Source: Podarcis filfolensis
Taxonomy: Eukaryota
Assembly: GCA_964270895.1 (NCBI GenBank)
Contig: OZ185437.1
Strand: one strand, 5' to 3'
Length of the DNA stretch: 64,000 nucleotides
The notes beneath the pieces were generated by a model. It searched no databases and was not told the DNA's origin. It worked only from the letters and a program-made list of their open reading frames with translations. Every line of letters begins with the position of its first letter. Position 1 is the stretch's first letter. This document shows, piece by piece, positions 2,987-53,020 of the stretch. The position numbers were made by a program, and so were the translations under genes.

Positions 2987-4094
2987 TATACATGTATATA
3001 ATGAATGCATTGCCCACAATGATGACACAGCCCCTTGCTATCAGTGTGTTTTTCACAGGTCTAAAGGGAGGGGAGAACTGGGGGCATGCAGTTGTTCCCA
3101 TACTGTGTTGCGACAGATTCACCTGTCCATATCAAAACAAGATGAAAATGTAGCTACACCTGTGGGCATTGTGCTGTTCTTCCAATCTTCTCAAGAAAGC
3201 GGGACTTGCTGCAGTAATAAGAAAGACAGAAGCAATTGGAAGACCTACGAGGCTTACAAATGGATGATGATACCCCACCCCCACCCCATGACAAAATGCG
3301 ACTGAAGGAGGCATAGTGATTCCACACTGAACGTCTAGTGTGGAAGCAGCCTACATAGGATTGCAACAATGTTATGCCAATAGAAGCCCTAGCATAGCAG
3401 CCGCCTGGCATACTGGAACCATAGGGTTACCCTGCCTATCAGTTTGCCAGTCACTATTAACTCCTGCTCTATTCTGCCTCCAGAGTTGCTATGTAGGTGT
3501 TGCTGATCATTGTCGATGTGTTTGTACAGTGCCTCGTGCGGCCATCTCCATTTTAAGCAAGGCTAGTAATCTCGCATATTTATGTGACCGACTGCTATAA
3601 TAATTATAGGGTGTTTTGAGTTTCACTTTAAATAATGGTTGTGAGCGACTTTGGATTACTTGCAAAAAGAGAGCTATGTGAACATGAAAGTCCTGAAGGG
3701 CAGACTTTCCAAAGTGTAAGGGGAGGCTACTCCAAAGAAGAGGGAAGTCTTTGTGAGAGTTCATGTAAACCTCTCCCTGAGCCCCACCCCCACCTCCTTT
3801 TAGTGGTTCCCTTTTAGCCCTGATTGGCCAAAGCGGGTTGGGGAGAGGATACCCATCCATTCCTTTCTAGTCAATCAGTGGGGGGCAGAAGCCCCAGCTC
3901 CTTAGAACCACTCTTACTGCCATGGAGCTGCTAAAACAGCAGAGTTTTACCATCTTATTATGATCCTTCCCTTAAAAAGATTTGGGTGGCTTTGCCATCA
4001 CATTTTAGTTTTCCAGGATAACATTCGTTCCAGGAAAACTGACAAAACATCTGTACAGCTTTCTCCTCCACGGAAGGGAAGGGAAGGGTTAAAC

Positions 4095-9200: not shown

Positions 9201-9871
9201 ATTGCAAAACAGGAGAAAGACACTGGGCTAAATCAATAAGAGGAATGCTAATCAAGGGAATTCCCTTCCAAAACCAGGAAAAAGCAAATCTTGATGCCTC
9301 TTCCTGCTAGAGCTAGAAAGACTACATCATTCACCTGTCTATCATGCTAATGCTTTTTATATACTCCTTATAAATCAGCTCTAAAAGCTTTCTATAAATG
9401 CCAATTAGCAGTTAAGGCAGAGCACAAATTAATCCTAGCTTGAGGACAGCATAGGGAAAGTCAGAGCATGTTCACATTATTACATTTTTTTCTACACTCC
9501 TTTGAAATGCATCTTCGTGAATATGCACTCACAGTCAGTGCAGCCAACATTCATAATAAATTCCAAAGGTGCTGGTACCCTTGGATCACAGAAGGCATGC
9601 TCTTGTGTTTGAATCCATCCCAGTTTTCAGTGAAATAAAAAGGGTTGACTGGCTAAAAAGCAAGTGAAGTAAGAAACACTAAAGGCTCAACCAGATATGA
9701 TGACGAAGATCTGTGGTCCAGATCTACTCCGTTTTGTTTAAGAAGCTAATAGCCTTCCCCAGCCAGGTCCCCTCCATACATTTAGGGCTACATCTTCCAT
9801 ATTCCCCAGCCATTGGCTATGCTGGCCGAGACTGATGGGAGATGTAGTCCAAAACATAAAGAGTGAACAAG

Positions 9872-10801
9872 CTCACAAGCTCACTCTGAAACTCACCTAC
9901 AGGTGGTACCTAACACCAAGAAAACTTGCACTAATACGCCCAGGAACCTCACCAAAATGCTGGAGAGGGTGCACCTCCACAGGCACATACCTCCACATGT
10001 GGTGGGAGTGCCCCAAAATCCCACTATTCTGGACAACAGCCATACAAGAAATATGTAAAATAACTAGGCAAGTATTAGATATCACCCCAGAATTGGCCCT
10101 ACTAAACATCTTCCAAGACGACAATGCCCATTTACACCACAAAGAACTCATAACCCACCTACTTTCAGCAGCCAGAAACACCATAACCAGACACTGGAGA
10201 GACACTGGAGAGACCAATGGTACCAAATAGTATGGGAAACTGCCCTACTAGAAAAATTAACCAATAAACTGAAACTGACACGGGGACAAACAGAAGAAGA
10301 TGCCTTTACCCTGGTATGGCTCCCATTTATCACATACACAGCCCAACAAGACAATGACAATAATCCACCAACAGCATACAAATCAATATGGCTAACCTGA
10401 TCCAAAACACCTACGCACCCCACTCACACACGAAAACAAAGGTCACCACAGCCAATCACAAGCAAACAACCACACCCTAGGCCAACCCCAACCTCTCTCA
10501 CCACCAAAGAAACAGAAATGAACAGCATGAGCAACGCTGATAGCAAACCCTACATACATTAAGCAAAATAGAAACATCGCCACCCGACCCCACCCCCACC
10601 CATCTTCCCCCCCTCCACCCCTTTCCCCCCCCTAATGTCTCAACAAATGAAACTGATTTGTAAAAATGTTACATGGAAAAAATACGAGAGACATTACACA
10701 TACTTCTGTAAAACAAGAAAACCTTTAATAAAAAAAAACAGAGCTCTGAGGAGGAAAGAAGAGCCCTGATGCTGAAGGTGGAAAAAAATAAAAAATAAAA
10801 A
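9872..10801 (+). mobile_element. 5'-truncated L1 LINE (ORF2 C-terminus, 3' UTR, polyA) plus 3'-transduced segment
   Basis: ORF 9835-10230 contains the L1 ORF2 cysteine-rich motif KCWRGCTSTGTYLHMWWECPKI and continues by frameshift to a stop near 10400; AATAAA plus A-run at 10727-10738; 14-bp TSD aaagagtgaacaag at 9858-9871 and 10802-10815. Confidence 0.9.
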
Positions 10802-43330: not shown

Positions 43331-44886
43331 ATGTTGAAGGTAGTCAGAACAGAAAGTGACTGAGCATAAAATGTTTGGCTTTAAGGCTACCATTCTTCTT
43401 TATGAATGCAGACTTCAGTGGTGGGGTTTTATATGCATGGGGCAGGGGACACAGAATATAAAAATGCAGAAAATCAGGAATTACATTGAGACACTAAATA
43501 AAGATTAATTATTTTGTCACGCTCAAAACAGTAGAGATTTGAGATTATCTAATGAAATTTGCAAAAGGTTCAGGGCTCATAGAAATGACAATTCATGTTG
43601 TACACCAACTTACAGAATTCGGTGCTAAAGTGCCACCAGCATAGTTCACTTTCTAAAAATCTTTTGACAAATTGTACGCTATAAATGTCCACACAGCTAT
43701 GGCAGCTCAAAATAAAACTTCCAGAAACTGTGCATAAATTATATCTCTGGTTACCAGAAACTGACTATATGGAGCTTTGCTAATTTGCTATGACATTCGG
43801 ATGTCCTTATGGGCACTTTGCCATTTAAATAGGGAAACTGGATTGAATGGTTTGAAGCTGGAGACCCCACAAAGTGCTCCCATCACCTTTTTCCAGGTGC
43901 AATTTGCTTTTGTGAAAAAACCATCTGAGCCATAAATCAAACCTAGTGGAAAGTTTAAAATGTCTTACTATTTATAAATGAGCAGATTAGAATAGCTCAA
44001 AGCATTAAATTAATCTTACAGTGACTATCATTTTTTTTATTTAAAAAAACACTAAATAAATGAGAGGTGCCAATTTAGACATGAATTTTACTGACAGACT
44101 TGAGAAACAGCAATCAAGCTAACCACGTTTCTAGCTAAATCAAAGTTCAGTATAAATTCCTATTGATCTATACATTTGCAGTCAATCTGGCCAAGATTGT
44201 TAGTTACCAATGGACAGCTGCTTATAGCTGGTTTATAATGATTGGTTGGCCACTCCCTATGTTGTTATTCTAATGGGGGAACACAAATTACAGAGTCAAT
44301 AGTTTGAATATGAGTTCATCTGGAGTTCCGACTGGTTCAAATGAGCATTGTGGATTTTATTACACTGACAGCTACATTTGTAGCTATTAGCAAATAACAA
44401 CCCAAAAATAGAGATCAAGGTCTATTATTTTTTTCCAGTTAGTGGCCATCCTTATACTGGGCCTATCTTGGAAATGAGTCATCTTTTCTGCCTCACGCAA
44501 GTGTAAATTTAGTATTGGTTTGGCCTAAATTTCCAGTAATTTTAAATATGAAACTGATTCTATTTTGCACGGGAGGTATTCTTCATTTGAAAACAATGAA
44601 AAATTATCTCCCTGACACCCAAAATGCCACATGCTTTAGTACCTATATAGGTGGCTCTGTCTTTATCACCACAGCAAAAGCACAATGAATTGCAGCATAC
44701 ATTTCTAAGAAGGTTGAAGTAGATATCTCAGGCCACAGGGCCTTGAAAGAGCTCCAGATCTGGCAGTCCTTCTTTCAGGAACCATTGATCTCTGGCATAA
44801 CTCCCATAAATTATATTATGATAGACACATTGTGATGGAAATGTAAGATGTAATAAGATAAAATTAATTTGTCTATACAGTACCTT

Positions 44887-45320
44887 TAGTGATGTATGGA
44901 AGTGGAAGTGAAAGCTGGACCATAAAGAAGGCTGATCGCCGAAGAATTGATGCTTTTGAATTATGGTGCTGGAGGAGACTCTTGAGAGTCCCATGGACTG
45001 CAAGAAGATCAAACCTCTCCATTCTTAAGGAAATCACCCCTGAGTGCTCACTGGAAGGACAGATCCTGAAGCTGAGGCTCCAATACTTTGGCCACCTCAT
45101 GAGAAGAGAAGACTCCCTGGGAAGGACCCTGATGTTGGGAAAGACTGAGGGCCCAAGGAGAAGGGGACGACAGAGGACGAGATGGTTGGATAGTGTTCTT
45201 GAAGCTACCAGCATGAGTTTGACCAAACTGCGGGAGGCAGTGGAAGACAGAAGTGCCTGGCGTGCTCTGGTCCATGGGGTCACGAAGAGTCGGACACGAC
45301 TAAACAACAACAACATACAG
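44887..45320 (+). mobile_element. 5'-truncated BovB-like RTE LINE
   Basis: ORF 44889-45335 (ESWTIKKADRRRIDAFELWCWRRLLRVPWTARRSN...) is the BovB RT C-terminus; (CAA)n tail; 11-bp TSD tacagtacctt at 44876-44886 and 45321-45331. Confidence 0.95.
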
Positions 45321-45872
45321 TACAGTACCTTATAAGGTATTCCTGGATGGAACACCTTTGGGCAGGGACAGCCACTTAGAAACAACTATGCTGCCATTTT
45401 GAGTTCTAGAAAATTTTCTGTATTATAATAAACCTAATGAATGCTCTTTCTCTCCAAAGATGCCTGTTCCATGCATCTCTGTTTAGATGTCCTGGGAACA
45501 TTCCCCAATACATTTTTGAAGGCAAATGTTCCTTGGACCTGTTACAAATGGTAGTTTGGTAGTTTGGTTATCTTGTTGCAAATAGCTTTATAACATCCTG
45601 TGAAATATTTGCCTGCGCTACTTTGACTCACGTTGTTTTGAGGCATATTTACAACTATTCATATCCCTACTGTCTTACACAAACAACATTCAGGTAGGCC
45701 AAACGTGCCTTAGCACATTCTAAAATAATTCCACCTTCAAATAAACTTCATGGCAGGTATTGTGCAGCTTCAGTAGTATCACAGATCTCCAAAAACTGCT
45801 GCATTCCGAAAGTAAAATGTTGGTTTACACAACTAGACAGTTATGTTTACACACTGAAATGTTAAGAAACTA

Positions 45873-47949
45873 GACTTCCGGGTTGGTGCCACTGTTTAAT
45901 GGCGGATTCCCTCCGAGCTCCGGAGGGAATCGGCTCCGTAGCGTTTGGGTCTGGCCGCTGCGGCGAAGCGGGGACCCTTAAAATCACAGGCGCGGATGCC
46001 TGTGAACACAGAGACTCGGCGGGCACCATTTGCGCCCCCCCAATCCGCGACGGAGCCTCTTTAAAGGCTTCGGAACGGAGGCAGGGTAAGGCGTGGTGCT
46101 GAGAGTACTCCCTCGCCTACGGAGTGAAGCCGCAAGCCATTGACAGAGAGCGCCAACTTCTTCTAAGAGTGATTGGATCCTAAAACATCAACCCGTGAGT
46201 AATACGGAGATTGGAACTTTAAAAAATTTCTTATTCTGGATTTGGAACGAGCGGGAAGGGGCTAAAAAGGAAGTCCACCCCCCCCCTCTTTGTAAACAAC
46301 TTAAAGCAAAGGACTGGGCAGCTAAGGTCGAGAGAATCTGTTTTTTGCTTTTCTTAACAAAGATCCTGACCTCACGGTTTGGACATTATAAGAAGATATT
46401 CTGGAGGATAAAAAGAATTTTGGGAGCTGAAACTACACCCCCCCCCTAGACCCGGGAACGTCCGATGAGAAAGCCTGTTGCATGGAAGATTTTGACAGCT
46501 GTCAAGTGAGCTGCTAGTCAGCTAGTTGTCAGCTGGAAAAAGAGAACATTGTTTCTGCTGTTTTTGCTGGTTTATTCGGGATAACTTGTTGAAAATAAGG
46601 TTGATACAAAATAACTGGACTTTTGGTTTTTGAGCTGAAAGGAAGATTAAGGAATTAAATCCCCCTAGAGGGGTAACAAGGATACTACATTACAAAAATG
46701 GCTGGAGTGTCTAAATTCCAAGCAGAATTGGACAGAGCACTGGTTCTCTTGGGAAACTTACAAGATGAGTACGATGCTTTGTCTACAGAGGTATCGCTAT
46801 TACACTGGACAGTAAACAACAGCTTGGAGTCTGATAAGGATTTGAAACAGGAAGCCTATTCAACTGAACAAATAAATGAAACCGAAAGCGTAGACACGAT
46901 GGAGCAATATGTTCTTTTTGAAGAAAACGAAGGAGGAGATGGAGGTTTGTAGGAGTCAAAGGAGAGCTACAATATGAGGCCTGACATGATGATAAAAAAG
47001 GACAATAAAAACTGGATGCGGAAAGCCTGGTTTGATTGGGAATTTGGAAAATGGAGAGATCCTCTTTTGAGGAGATCTGAAGACCTGAGGATTATAAATT
47101 TGTTGAAGGTGGAAGCTGGAGCTGTGGGGACATTTGGATTTGAAAGAAATTTGAAACAAGAGTTGGAATACCCCATAGGCTTTGCTTTTGCTTTTAAGTA
47201 TGGAGGACTGGCTAGAAGTAACACCGATTCTGTTGGGCCGGAGCCCCTCCGAGACCTGGGGCTTAACATCAAGGTCTATCAAAGAGACCGGCAGAAAGGA
47301 ACTGAGAGAGACATAAGGGCCTCGGACCTGAGATCTCCAGGCTAAATAAATAATATAAAGACTGATGGATATTGGTTGGGGACTGGAACCGGGAGAAGGG
47401 TGGGTGGAGGTTGGGAATCCAAAGGGTACATAAGGATAATTTGCATTGCTTTATTTGTTTTATATTTTGTTAGTGGTAAGGAAATTGGGTAAACCGTGGA
47501 AGGGAAATTTTGGTCGACCTTAGGAAAAAGGTTTAAGAATAAATTAATGAAGTATAAGTATTGATGAGTAATTTCAATAAGGTGAAACTGGTTTTTTTTT
47601 TTTTTTTAAATTAAGTGAAAATAAGGCTGTTAAAAATAAATGGAGGAAATGGAAAAAAGAAATAAAGTAAAATAACAGTATGTTAGAATAAATGTTTAAG
47701 TTAAGGTGAAGAAATAAGTTAAGGACTTGCTGAATTGACAATTTAAATTGGAATACAAGAAGGGGAGGTGTGAGGAGGTCTGAGAAACAAGGTTGAGGAA
47801 AATAAGTATCAGAAACTGTATGTGTTTTTTCTATTTTTCTGTTTAGTTTTGAATATGCTTTTTTGTGTTGTTTTTATTTTGTTTATTTTTTTTGTTTTTG
47901 TTTGTTGTGTGTTTATTGAAAATACCAATAAATATTTAATTAAAAAAAA
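45873..47949 (+). mobile_element. Full-length 2.08-kb non-autonomous L1-like retroelement (half-L1/HAL1-like), no reverse transcriptase
   Basis: 16-bp TSD aaatgttaagaaacta at 45857-45872 and 47950-47965; CpG-rich 5' UTR starting gacttccggg; AATAAA at 47927-47932 plus polyA; one interrupted ORF; no RT or endonuclease motifs. Confidence 0.85.
46698..47345 (+). pseudogene. Retroelement ORF (~215 codons, putative ORF1-like) interrupted by one TAG at 46950-46952
   Basis: ORFs 46698-46952 and 46974-47345 are in the same frame, separated by a single stop plus 7 codons; strong Kozak context (aaaATGG); amphipathic N-terminus. Confidence 0.6.
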
Positions 47950-50900
47950 AAATGTTAAGAAACTAAGCTATGTCAGAGTTTAAAATGTCAAATGGCAGGT
48001 AACCTGGGAATCCACTTATTAATTTGTCAATAGCTTAACTGTTTAGGGGTAAAAAGAACTTACAAATGTAAACAAACAGTTGCTTTAACTTAAGTGAGAC
48101 CCTCCTTTGCCCCCAGGATCAGCTCCAGGACATTTGCTGGGAAGCTTTCTTTATCTCCTGACAGTGTGAAACACTTTACCTGCAAATTGACTTGTGTGTA
48201 AAAGGAAGCCATCATTCATGCTAATGGACCCCCATCAGCTTGCTTTCACTATATCATGATACCCTAGAGCAGAATTGTGAAGCCTTTTAAGCCCAGGGCT
48301 TAGCAAAGGTTTTAACAACTCTAAAATGCTAACCTTCATTTCCATACACATTTCAAGGCACTATACAACACACTTCTGTGTAAACTATTTTTTAAAGAGT
48401 TTCTGCTGCAGGCTTCTTTATGACTAATGCACTGTTCATGTCTTTTTTATAGCCAAAACTCAAGAAAATGCAGATATGTTTGTTTTATATAAAATGTGTT
48501 GGAGTTCTTCAGATAGCAAGCAATGGCAGACAAACAAGATCACCTCTCATTCCAGATGAATTAATCTGAATAATGTCCCACAATAAACACAGAAATAATG
48601 GGTGTATTCAGCTATGCTCTACTCAGGGTAGACCCACTGAACTTAATGGACTTAACTTAGCAATGTTCCTTAATTTCAACAGGTCTACTCTGTTGAAATT
48701 AATGAACAACGGGTTAATTAATTTCAACAAGCTGTGTTCCCTGGGGAGAATCGCAGGTCAGACAGAGAGCAGTGGAGGACTGCATTCTGCCTGTGGGCCC
48801 GAGACTCTCCACAAATCCAGATTGGAGTGGGGGGATGCAGGTGCCTTGGGGGGCAGGTGAGGCAGCAAACAGACTTAATTGGCCAGCAAATTTTAAAACC
48901 TTTTTGAATTGGGTTGCATTTAAAATATTTATATGCTACTCTCCCGCTTGGAAATCTGCATGGTGGTTTTGCAAACAAACTGCAAATTTAAATAGGCTGC
49001 AAATGAGAAGTGCCAACTTAAAAAAATATCCATTTCCTTCTGTAGAAAATAAAGAATGCACTTTCTACCATGATACTTGTTTGCAACATATGCCTGCATC
49101 ATATAATGACAGAGTATGCTTCCCTGGCGCTAGTTTTGTAAAAGTTTGTGTCAAAGTTTATTTACAATTGGAAAGGGGACAGTGCAGACTTTCATCCCCT
49201 ATGCATTGGTTCTCCACCCTTGCTGTAGAAGAACCCAGATTCAATTCCCTGCATCTCCAGAAAAGGCGAGGAAAGAATATGAAACTCTGAAGACTTCCTG
49301 CAGGTCAGTTCCAACAGTACTTACCTAGATGAACCACTAGCCAGCTTCCTATTTTGCTGTATGAAGAACGTAAACAACATGTGAGCATGGCTTTGCATGG
49401 TCATTGTGAAGGAAATCAGACATCACAAAAAGTATATTTTGCAAATTACAAAAGTAGTAGTAGTAGTAGTTTGTATCTATGCTATTTGTCTTAATAAACT
49501 CCAAAGTAAATGAGTCATGGACTGCAACCCAAAACTATGCATTTTGTCCTTTTCTATACAATGAGTCATTTTATTTTTATTGGTTTGGGCACTACAGAAC
49601 TGCTGTCATGGATTAATTTATTCCAGAAGTGTACTTCTTAGATTCATTTTCCAGAATGAGAGTTACTTAAGCCACTGTTAGTGCAATCCACGTGTCTATT
49701 CAGAAGCAAGCCTCACTGAATTCAGTGGGACTTATTTCCAGAATGTATGCAAACAAAGCCAGTAATGGTTACTAACATGGTAAAATATGGTCTGTTTTCC
49801 AATAAGTTGTGAAGATGGACCTGTGCAATAGCAACAACAACTGGGATGATAAGGGACATTTGGAATTTAGCTTTGAGCTTATTGCACCTGTATACTAAAG
49901 TACAAATCACCAAATGGTTGCAAAATCAGATAAGGGCTTAAAAACAGTGTGTTTTAATGGTTTACTGTCTAGAAATTGTGTCAGAAAATAAAATGTGATA
50001 TGGAAAAGGGAAATACAAATCCTACAGGGGGAACATGCAATTAATTCCCTGTGTTTGCTAATAGTATTGACTTTCATATGGTTTTTAACATTACTGGAAG
50101 CTTACACTAGAACCCTTTTCCCCCTTTGTAAGCTTTGGTTTTCATATTTGCCTTGATTAAATAGTCCCTGTGTTTTCTTTTGCATCTAATCTCCATGTCA
50201 TAATTCTCTTAGTAATATATCTCTGGTTTCAGTTTTCCTATTACAGCATATGGATTTATCTTGTGAGAGCAATAGCTACTTCAGTTGTGAATTATGTTGA
50301 CCTGAATTTCAAAACCAGGCAGTGCACAGTAGAGACGTGTTTGCACTGTGTCTCTGGAATACTGTGAGGACACTATTCTCCATGGGTGGAATCCAATGTT
50401 GCCAATCAAAAGTTTGCATAACAGCTTTTGATCCCAGATAAGCTGATGCCTCCACTAACATAAGAGGAGAGTAAGTGATTTCTGCCATTTCCCCCTTCTC
50501 TCTATAGGCCTGCTGCAGCACCCAGAAAACTATTCTAGAGGATCAAGTCCTCCAGAATGTGGAAGGTGGCTGCAGGAGGGAAAGCAAACCAGAGAACGTT
50601 GCCTCTCCAACATTACGATGGCATAACCGCCCACTGATCAAAAGCCATTATGCAAGTAAAAAAACAGCATTAGATTCCACCCAATTGGATGAGCCCAAAG
50701 ATCAACAACTTTGCCATTGACAATGGCAGTGATTGACCCAGGTCCTTCTAGCAAGAAAACACTGCAACCTGGCAAAATTCTGGGTCAGCTGCCAACATGC
50801 TTGAAAAGGTTTCCCACCATTCAGGGCTTAGTGAACTGTAGCTCAGGAAGGTTTGTCATATGTCCATTTCTGGCATATGATAGACAACAAGATTCCTACT

Positions 50901-52387
50901 TACAGTAGTACACGTTAAAAGAAAATTGTGTTGCTTTTATTAGAGCTCTTTACATGCTCATGTCAAAAGCAGGTAGTACACAAGAAGTATGACACCACTG
51001 AAGGAAATCTAGGGCATTTTCACATCTGAACCTTAACTTGAATTGTGCATTAAAGGTCCACTGTACACTATAATTTGCGTGGCTTAGAGTGTTAAGCTAA
51101 ATTTGGTTTAGAATATAGCTTTGATTTGAGAAGCCCAAATGCTATTTGTAATATTATGGCTGAAAATTGTCCACTGTATAGACAGTTCTATACCATAGTT
51201 GCACACTACCCTGTTTGATAGTGCATCAGTCACCATTTGATCAATGGGAAGCTGAGGTTGGGAGAGAATGACCTGTGTGATACACTCAAATGAATAAATA
51301 GCCCAAGTGCAAATTATATTCCGTTTGCATCCAAAGTTCTCCTGCTGGAACAAGCTGGCTCTTACCTACTAAAAGTCCAATTATGGTGGACAAAATGGAA
51401 GGGGGGGAAATACTATATGAGTGAAGGTTGGTACCAAAAGCAAAGTAGGAAAGGAAACATTTGAATAGCTATTGAAACATAAATCATGCAATGAATTCAG
51501 AACACAAAAGTTATATTTAGCTAGAACCAGTGTCATACAGTATCATGAGGAGATCATTTGTATTTACTAACAATATGTGCATTCAGAATCCTGAAGCCTA
51601 ATAGATTACCCTGAGCAAATCAATGTCTGTGATTTTCTTGACAATCTGTGAGGTAGGTTAGAATGAGAGATAAAGATTTGGCCAAGGTCACCCAATGACC
51701 TTTATGGCAGAATTAAGGATTTGAAAAGGAATGAACACCCAAGTTCTATCTTGCACACTCCAATGACTCTAGTTGTAACTCTGAGAACAGCATATTTGGA
51801 GTGATCCCATTTGACAATATGTGAGGTAGGTTAGAGAGAAATTAGGTAATACCAATATGCTGCTTTTTTAGTTCCTTGGATGAAGGGTGAGATACAAAGG
51901 GGATGAATAAAATATAGTGGGACCATTATATTGTAAATTTGAAGGATACATGAAGATAGTCGCCAAACTGTTAGGATTTTTCCCTTACCCAAAGAAATAA
52001 TACACTTTAGGTACATATATTTACTACTGTAAATGCAACATGGATTCATTCTCAGTTTTTTAAAAAACAGGGACATATGGCTGGATGTTAATGCTGGGAT
52101 GAACCCTATTTAATATCAGCATTAACTCTTTAGAAGCAGTTGCTATTGTAGTGACATCTGGAAGAAACCTTTAAATAGATTATTTTCTAACCTGGATGAA
52201 GGATTCATCCAGCATTTGTAGCCAATACAAATATTGTTGTTGTGTTTTTTTTAAAAGTATTAGTTTTGTGAATATAAATAAAAGCCATAAACAACCATTC
52301 AGGAAGTAAATAGTCCATAAGTAAGTAGCAGAAAGCTACTGTTTTCCAGAAGGAAACATAAATGCCATCTTTATTCATACAAGATTG

Positions 52388-53020
52388 GTTGGCATCCACC
52401 TGGAAGAGTACACCTTCGGGGGTGAAGTCAAACTGTTGGAGAGTTACAGTGCTTTCTGTGGCTGAAGAGTATGATCCGGGAGAGACCTGTTTTGTTGCAG
52501 CTGGGGCAGGTGAAGGCGTCCAGTTCTGCTGATACCAGTGTACTACGGTGTTTCTTCTTTCTGCACTCCTCCCAGCGGACATTCCTCCCCTCACTGCTGT
52601 GGTTACATGACCTGACTGGTTGTCTCTAGGTACTGCAGTTGTCAGCAAGGGATTCCCAGCCTTCATATCACATTTGCAGACATCTCTGTAATACAGAGTT
52701 GGTCTGCCAATTGGCCTGTTGCCTGAAGCTAGCATGTGCTTGGGGATCCTGCCATCTTCCATTCTGTAGACATGACCAAGCCAGCGTAGACGTCACTGTG
52801 ACAGGAGTGCAAACATGCTGGGAATGTGTGCTTGGGAGGCACATCTGTGTTTGAGACTCCGTCCTGCCATTAGATGCAATGCAGGTGGAAGGCACTGATA
52901 TGTCACTCCTGGCGGGTGTAAGTTGCCCACGACTCACTTCCACAAAGCAGTGTGCTTGACATTCAAGCCTGGTAGACCTTCATCTTGGTATTGGTCATTG
53001 GCATCACATTCTCTCATACG
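52388..53020 (-). mobile_element. Decayed RTE-clade LINE 3' fragment (non-BovB)
   Basis: Minus strand translates TNTKMKVYQA..., a WQDRVSNTDV-like stretch, then MEDGRIPKHMLASGNRPIGRPTLYYRDVCKCDMKAGN. Confidence 0.85.

Follow-up and report, generated by a model that had tools for sequence, protein, structure and literature searches.

A stretch of 64,000 nucleotides (the window) carries a short retroelement that lacks reverse transcriptase (RT) and still has a reading frame of its own. What kind of element is this, and what is the frame kept for? The second question reaches beyond this locus, for why half-L1s (HAL1) keep ORF1 is an open question, commonly answered by their need for an RNA chaperone of their own.

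Boundaries, copies and insertion marks

An earlier note, made from the letters of the window, had described a complete element of ~2.08 kb with a perfect 16-bp target-site duplication (TSD). A sequence check of the window agrees: the element occupies 45873-47949, which is 2,077 bp between direct repeats, and the repeat AAATGTTAAGAAACTA is present at both ends with a 100% match. Its parts are as follows.

45857-45872, plus strand: left TSD, 16 bp, matching 47950-47965 at 100%
45873-46697, plus strand: 5′ UTR, its first ~440 bp CpG-rich and homologous to the 5′ UTR of a resident L1 clade
46698-47345, plus strand: ORF, 215 codons plus TAA, an internally deleted ORF1p derivative
46698-46832, plus strand: N-terminal helix, codons 1-45, under constraint, corresponding to the first coiled-coil heptads of ORF1p
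46833-47132, plus strand: codons 46-145, remnants of the coiled coil and of the first half of the RRM, neutral with the frame kept
46950-46952, plus strand: premature TAG, codon 85, private to the window copy (0/29 other loci)
47310-47345, plus strand: C-terminal motif ASDxRxPG-stop, codons 205-215 and the stop, conserved; its source is the tail of ORF1p in one L1 subfamily
47346-47949, plus strand: 3′ part, descended from the end of L1 ORF2 and the L1 3′ UTR, with AATAAA and a short poly(A)
47950-47965, plus strand: right TSD, 16 bp, same as the left copy

Both AATAAA and poly(A), as noted earlier, could be located. The former lies at 47927-47932 and the latter belongs to an A run at 47942-47952, of which the final three A fall within the TSD, so that the tail proper is short. 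The 5′ UTR had been called CpG-rich and undecayed and the copy probably young. Indeed, the CpG observed/expected ratio is 0.99 in the first 400 bp of the element vs 0.17 in the 5 kb upstream, and relatives are 97-100% identical; this region presumably acts as an internal promoter. The absence of RT also stands, since ORF2 is missing inside the element and just its final part survives, as 3′ UTR. The window copy as it is contains no stop-to-stop sense frame longer than 130 codons, and a Pfam search of its frames found no family in the four (of four) tested. The frame of about 215 codons, said to be broken by a TAG, is a true one, but the TAG is not a feature of the family: the frame is open in 29/29 other loci, and the TAG is the sole base substitution unique to the window copy among 30 loci.

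The searched genome measures 1.51 Gb. All 40 scored DNA matches are full-length and 97-100% identical to the window element. Among the 30 loci fetched, 29 have a TSD of 15-21 bp (L010 has none) and 29 an open frame; L006 and L007 represent one insertion duplicated together with its flanks, and copy counts are somewhat inflated by such segmental duplications. Mean pairwise identity is 99.1% for the 30 best matches and 98.5% for nine copies chosen by position. A protein search, biased toward intact copies, gave 2,807 candidates, of which the 150 scored are all 99-100% identical and 149 stop-free. Exact words from the ends of the element occur 162 times for the 5′ 30-mer of the window subfamily and 590 times for the 3′ 31-mer, which is common to this subfamily and to close sister subfamilies (controls 0). 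The 162 exact 5′ ends exclude a unique copy, and the element belongs, as had been proposed, to a young multi-copy family with L1-type insertion marks.

This family is part of a larger group. Starting from a database protein 43% identical, many further subfamilies were found in the same genome, 45-97% identical to that protein and sharing a common anatomy: the same 5′ motif, a 5′ UTR of 0.8-0.95 kb, a frame of ~200-225 codons and a total length of 1.93-2.2 kb. A TSD could be called in 29 of 41 subfamily loci, three of these being just 8 bp and doubtful, and ORF2 was found in no family copy, TSD-bounded lengths being 1.93-2.2 kb. At the level of the superfamily, a degenerate version of the 5′ motif has 2,354 matches in the genome (control 0). 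So as not to select copies by their protein, we sampled by position 80 of the first 81 matches on contig 1, skipping one already contained in a neighboring sampled stretch. Among the 80 there are 49 ORF-type loci, 27 loci of a 1.69-kb sister family, one L1, two short loci and one unclassified. A TSD is present in 65/80; 64 TSDs have a median length of 17 bp, begin A-rich and are preceded by T. Overall, TSDs measure 11-23 bp and targets are T/A-rich. Poly(A), TSDs of 11-23 bp and T/A-rich targets are marks of L1 target-primed reverse transcription. Of the 80 sampled matches, 79 (the unclassified one included) did not score as L1, which suggests that non-autonomous elements account for some thousands of the CpG-rich 5′ ends of L1 type in this genome.

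Several other arrangements were observed. In the window, a 155-codon stretch at 44868-45333 (plus strand), 0.5 kb upstream of the element, presumably resembles the C-terminal part of RTE/Bov-B reverse transcriptase, and other LINE fragments lie at 9742-10228 and 52207-52792. Elsewhere, many identical family and L1 copies are clustered on contig 19, and short tandem series of family/L1 copies occur on contig 7 (13.03-13.10 Mb) and contig 8 (24.3-24.4 Mb). A 5′-truncated copy of the 1.69-kb family is nested in inverted orientation within the 3′ UTR of L044, and in L115/L184, L107 and L129 the ORF is interrupted by insertions measuring ~0.2-1.1 kb. Finally, L112, L120 and L146 (1068, 590 and 425 bp) are intact at 5′ and cut at 3′, with TSDs of 16-18 bp and without poly(A); they resemble tailless retrocopies, which have been reported for green anole (PMC5322556, excerpt).

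Relationship to L1 and to ORF1p

That the element is a non-autonomous derivative of L1 is almost certain. In sixteen L1 loci, the first 450 bp and the 3′ end can be matched to the family, with a DNA identity of ~70-75%. More precisely, the first ~440 bp of the 5′ UTR are ~70-73% identical to L1 loci L086, L091, L093 and L182, and positions 1830-2046 of family copy L002, at the 3′ end, are 74% identical to L093. L086 is an intact relative (ORF1, 348 aa; ORF2 frame, 1,249 aa), and L182 is the L1 locus closest to the basal subfamilies. A further autonomous-type L1, whose 5′ UTR is homologous to that of the family, carries RVT_1 (E 2.7e-38) and Exo_endo_phos (E 3.7e-11). It is full-length with a frameshifted ORF1 and is found ~200 bp behind family copy L080 in the same orientation (contig 2, about 3.53 Mb), beginning at L080 oriented position 3524. 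The long ORFs downstream of L069, L071, L074 and L080 were considered as family parts and discarded, as they are other sequences outside the TSD.

The 20 ORF-bearing copies compared (20/20) have a common end of the frame, which falls within the ORF1 tail of an L182-like L1: the stop codon of the family ORF sits at an ORF1/ORF2 deletion junction. The sequence behind this junction is clearly the ORF2 end in basal subfamilies and more changed in derived ones, and the simplest reading would be one origin for the deletion joining ORF1 tail to ORF2 end. It had been considered that the element could turn out to be just an internal deletion of an L1. As to origin this is the case; however, the deletion is old and has since diversified as a lineage of its own. 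Given the shared junction, the many subfamilies and the 162 exact 5′ ends, the element amplifies as its own family and not as one-off deleted L1 copies. The 5′-UTR tree and the ORF trees disagree, with L103 and L041 placed differently and L1s falling among family members, which suggests exchange of 5′ UTRs between lineages.

The window protein looks new because the L1 ORF1p profile gives it a score of ~0 bits. It is nonetheless linked to L1 ORF1p via intermediate subfamilies, the basal L077 scoring 103 bits. In the other direction, a profile of 23 family proteins recovers 16/16 L1 ORF1 frames at 29-65 bits, shuffled or reversed controls giving at most 5.0, and hhalign of the family against L1 ORF1p returns a probability of 98.5% (E 4e-15). 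Judged by these profiles, the family protein is an internally deleted, fast-evolving L1 ORF1p derivative and not a new protein. The earlier note had found it not obviously a canonical ORF1p: a whole ORF1p is indeed absent, but the idea of an unrelated or undescribed protein does not hold.

The frame of the window element starts at the second Met (M46) of L1 ORF1p. According to the profile alignment, the parts of the donor protein that have gone are the N-terminal residues 1-45, one heptad, RRM residues 196-235 (about 40 residues, half of the RRM), CTD residues 278-294 (17 residues) and most of the tail. The donor L1 ORF1p itself matches human 2LDY in sequence (E 2.5e-7) and has a predicted coil-RRM-CTD fold, for which Foldseek returns 2YKP (E 7e-11) and only human ORF1p among the top ten. 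In the AF2 model of the family protein, built from a shallow alignment, residues 1-40 are the sole confident part (pLDDT 76-91); mean pLDDT is 48, with values <50 at 149/215 residues, and no beta strand is predicted. Net charge is zero or negative in 33/37 family proteins and reaches −10 in the window subfamily. An ESM Atlas search gave no lead (best score 0.79). Pfam on family relatives gave nothing meaningful and a PF02994 search of the genome gave no signal anywhere; these blanks are uninformative, since Pfam misses the donor ORF1p too and the PF02994 controls were also silent. Two Podarcis database proteins described as TRIM39-like (P0016, P0017) combine a RING with 68% identity over three quarters of L1 ORF1p, and could be either gene-model fusions or a real capture.

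Selection on the frame and its possible role

Codon models gave a dN/dS of 0.60 on 23 copies and 0.63 on 37 (2ΔlnL 74 against 1), values taken from single intact copies and thus inflated by post-insertion changes. For L1 ORF1 the value is 0.19 on nine copies, and 0.14 for RRM-CTD. The constraint is unevenly distributed along the 37 copies: dN/dS is 0.38 in codons 1-45 (2ΔlnL 81.4 against 1), 0.90 and 0.93, with no difference from 1, in codons 46-145, 0.70 and 0.63 in codons 146-204, and 0.23 in the last 11 codons (205-215). The five other frames of the same alignment range from 0.87 to 1.46. The Trp-rich middle that had drawn attention earlier is present, but it lies in the part that evolves neutrally (dN/dS 0.93). 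The same two ends, helix and tail, are conserved in 12 database proteins at 25-44% identity to the query, and A, S, D, P and G of the ASDxRxPG motif are invariant in all 12. Named database relatives of the family and of the L1 proteins are from Podarcis. Four of the 12 proteins are just 30-50% identical to any subfamily sampled in this genome, so the family may extend to other species.

The state of the frame among copies picked by position points in the same direction. Out of 49 ORF-type copies, 30 are open (with some doubt about the usual start in L117), 15 are disrupted by stops or frameshifts and four are truncated or interrupted; L103 and L156 align poorly and their frame status was read separately. 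No lesion is common to any two of the 15 broken copies, and indels shared between copies are in frame. Inside the young window subfamily, shared variants are 2 N/5 S (binomial p 0.02 vs expectation) and private ones 23 N/16 S; the contrast is not significant (Fisher p 0.22), private N being also somewhat low, and we count this weak test against our best explanation. Purifying selection keeps the ORF open and is confined to its two ends, the N-terminal helix and the C-terminal motif; an intact frame under purifying selection is what the earlier note had proposed to look for.

The 1.69-kb sister family went further down the same path. Its members are flanked by TSDs, end in poly(A) and possess L1-derived 5′ and 3′ parts without a long ORF; there are 451 exact 5′ ends genome-wide vs 162 for the window subfamily. 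The 27 loci sampled on contig 1 (L105 and L106 among them) form two very young subgroups, with identities of 99.5% and 98.9% within and 81% between. The ORF region is broken by deletions and frameshifts and the C-terminal peptide is lost, and yet the sister outnumbers the window subfamily; at least one lineage can thus dispense with the tail. An ATG-led frame for the helix core RTGYLLGKLQN exists in 24/24 full-length copies; in one subgroup it begins at the old start and has 25-27 codons, in the other it begins at a new start in the same frame and has 30-51. The core belongs to the top 3% of windows, as one of four peaks of conservation, and between the subgroups its 13 codons differ by three synonymous changes and no other. 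Such a comparison, being a single one with three changes, is suggestive of selection on the mini-ORF peptide; constraint at the nucleotide level would be an alternative. A search for the core with mismatches yielded 556 matches, and the first 100 listed are all exact, with no older subgroup among these. In the 5′-UTR tree the sister stands next to the window subfamily (99/96) on a long branch, and its helix core resembles that of the L041/L044 clade.

How might the frame serve its element? Mobilization in trans by ORF2p of intact L1s is likely in view of the L1-like target-site composition and of the intact relative L086 in the genome, and HAL1s are said to depend on full-length L1 (PMC5322556, excerpt). 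We propose, with a probability of about 0.5, that the family protein is a docking adaptor and not an RNA chaperone. The fact that just the two protein ends are still conserved makes a role as hook or adaptor likely, and a chaperone is disfavored since half of the RRM is gone and its remnant neutral. The history, as shown by the sequences, begins with one deletion that fused the tail of ORF1 with the last part of ORF2; further deletions took the N-terminal region of ORF1p and the RRM and CTD segments mentioned above, and the lineage then split into many subfamilies with the frame kept open. In our proposal, the protein would no longer package RNA. It would act in cis, during or just after its synthesis, a benefit in cis being indicated by selection against broken masters; its helix would join loose N-terminal heptads of L1 ORF1p assemblies and bring its own mRNA to ORF2p. 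More speculatively, the C-terminal motif might slow the ribosome at the stop codon, holding peptide and mRNA together. This stall would explain how the peptide acts in cis, and the sister lineage manages without the tail. With its private TAG, the window copy would still make the helix and not the tail.

The adaptor is favored by the match of the helix to metastable heptads, by the co-assembly of ORF1p coils and by the action of truncated ORF1p through this region. The motif came ready-made from the L1 ORF1p tail and may have other reasons to persist, for instance phosphorylation at Ser-Pro, which weighs against our proposal. A 2A-like reading of ASDxRxPG-stop was set aside: the 2A (StopGo) motif is D(V/I)ExNPG/P, the spacing differs and no Pro follows. 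Against the adaptor as a whole we also count the higher abundance of the sister without long frame and tail, and the drift of the helix, at about 0 bits with the L1 profile, is hard to square with sequence-specific co-assembly. From the literature, human ORF1p N-terminal heptads are metastable and may link trimers, and in isolation they are monomeric and unstructured (PMC5940361, excerpt), the latter property speaking against the adaptor; distinct ORF1p coils form heterotrimers (PMC10588031, excerpt); and truncated human ORF1p acts on L1 in trans via its N-terminus and coiled coil, suppressing it (PMC5605252, excerpt). A complete form of the proposal, in which the ORF is a nascent-chain tether in cis, would have the helix grip ORF1p assemblies, the neutral middle serve as spacer and the tail stall the ribosome at the stop, so that the RNA of the parasite reaches the L1 particle with it; the genome would then hold a path from L1 to half-L1, gutted half-L1 and an active element of 25-51 codons. 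Taken together, so much is rather improbable.

Other explanations account for parts of these data. The act of translation could outweigh the protein, the frame keeping the RNA on ribosomes, safe from decay and near nascent ORF2p, while the conserved ends would reflect start and stop context or avoidance of harmful products. We regard this as a tentative possibility: the middle 100 codons remain always in frame despite a dN/dS of 0.9, the sister thrives with a short frame, and mobilization of SINE and L1 is thought to need ribosomal localization (PMC11260458, excerpt), but 45 codons at 0.38 with their heptad pattern kept go beyond context effects, as do residues invariant across proteins of 25-44% identity. 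It is unlikely that the protein works in trans as a poison or decoy that disables L1 ORF1p trimers and frees ORF2p for other RNAs, including those of the element, or helps the host. The suppression of L1 by truncated human ORF1 proteins that retain N-terminus and coiled coil (PMC5605252, excerpt) and the loss of half of the RRM would fit, and the mini-ORF sister could be such a free rider; yet a benefit in trans also serves broken copies, so broken masters should spread, and the 15 broken copies have no shared lesion.

Two further readings concern the RNA itself and an ORF1p with its usual function. The ends could be conserved as RNA or DNA elements, the coding signal being a by-product. A predicted hairpin of eight pairs covers the last codons and the stop, all wobble changes keep its pairing, two fourfold sites there hardly vary, and the sister keeps DNA remnants of both ends. 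Nevertheless, compensatory changes are found in 0/8 pairs, 13-86% of synonymous recodings of the same peptide are as stable, the final ten codons show 27 third-position changes vs 15 at first and second positions, and the loop Arg is an invariant residue with a synonymous change present. We find no support beyond the peptide for the hairpin as a selected element and consider this reading very unlikely. Least probable of all, and hardly credible to us, is an ordinary HAL1 whose protein would remain an RNA chaperone despite its deletions. Coding capacity of guinea pig HAL1 ORF1p has been reported as long maintained (PMC3627910, excerpt) and an ORF1-only reporter needs functional ORF1p (PMC11260458, excerpt). 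Here, however, donor residues 196-235 and 278-294 are missing, the remnant is neutral as against 0.14 for L1 RRM-CTD, the protein is acidic, and the AF2 model, weak evidence with its shallow alignment, has no beta strand.

Comparison with known elements

With L1 ORF1p (human 2YKO/2YKP/2LDY; lizard L086 and L182) the family protein shares a common ancestry, the N-terminal coil, first RRM half, part of the CTD and start of the tail being alignable. It differs by the absence of the N-terminal basic region, a shorter coil, partial deletion of RRM and CTD, and a higher dN/dS (0.63 vs 0.19). Unlike an autonomous L1, the element possesses neither APE endonuclease nor RT. The adaptor that we propose finds a functional analogy in the nascent-chain tether of XBP1u, where the mRNA is brought to a partner by an exposed upstream segment together with a conserved C-terminal stretch roughly as long as the tunnel (PMC6624018, excerpt). 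There is no homology with XBP1u, the conservation in the present family runs up to the stop codon, and an arrest would be hypothetical, deduced from conservation and position. If the tether reading is true, one genome shows how L1 can lead to a parasite with almost no coding content.

As the HAL1 features tested are present except for a whole ORF1p, we classify the element by sequence as a HAL1-like variant and not a canonical HAL1 member. HAL1 elements have ORF1 only and arose several times in mammals (PMC5753468 and PMC3627910, excerpts). Like them, the present family is L1-derived with ORF1 and without ORF2, has poly(A) and TSDs, kept its coding capacity for long and presumably depends on L1 ORF2p. 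Unlike them, it is a lizard family whose ORF1p is gutted and selected at both ends only, and one of its lineages has shrunk to a frame of 25-51 codons. A search of the article literature (including the excerpts of PMC4161310, PMC5203782 and PMC11260458) found no reptile HAL1; the family may be deposited in Repbase or Dfam under some name. Of an ordinary kind otherwise, the element is unusual for an ORF gutted yet selected at both ends and for a sister lineage cut to one helix. The family deleted the chaperone core, yet its frame stays under selection. This natural deletion series points to how little of ORF1p may be needed for an RNA to capture ORF2p in trans.

Among bipartite non-autonomous LINEs, HeT-A, HAL1 and Ag-Sponge form an ORF1-present class, whose proteins likely multimerize with those of the partner; those without ORF are, in the excerpt of the same article, reported only from RTE, Ingi, Vingi and R2 (PMC5786205). 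The 1.69-kb sister suggests that L1, too, can yield nearly non-coding bipartite parasites, a case not listed for L1 in that excerpt. Like RIME, Bov-A and the Vingi/R2 derivatives (PMC5786205, excerpt), the sister consists of 5′ and 3′ parts with TSDs and poly(A); unlike these ORF-absent elements, it comes from L1 via a HAL1-like stage and keeps a mini-ORF.
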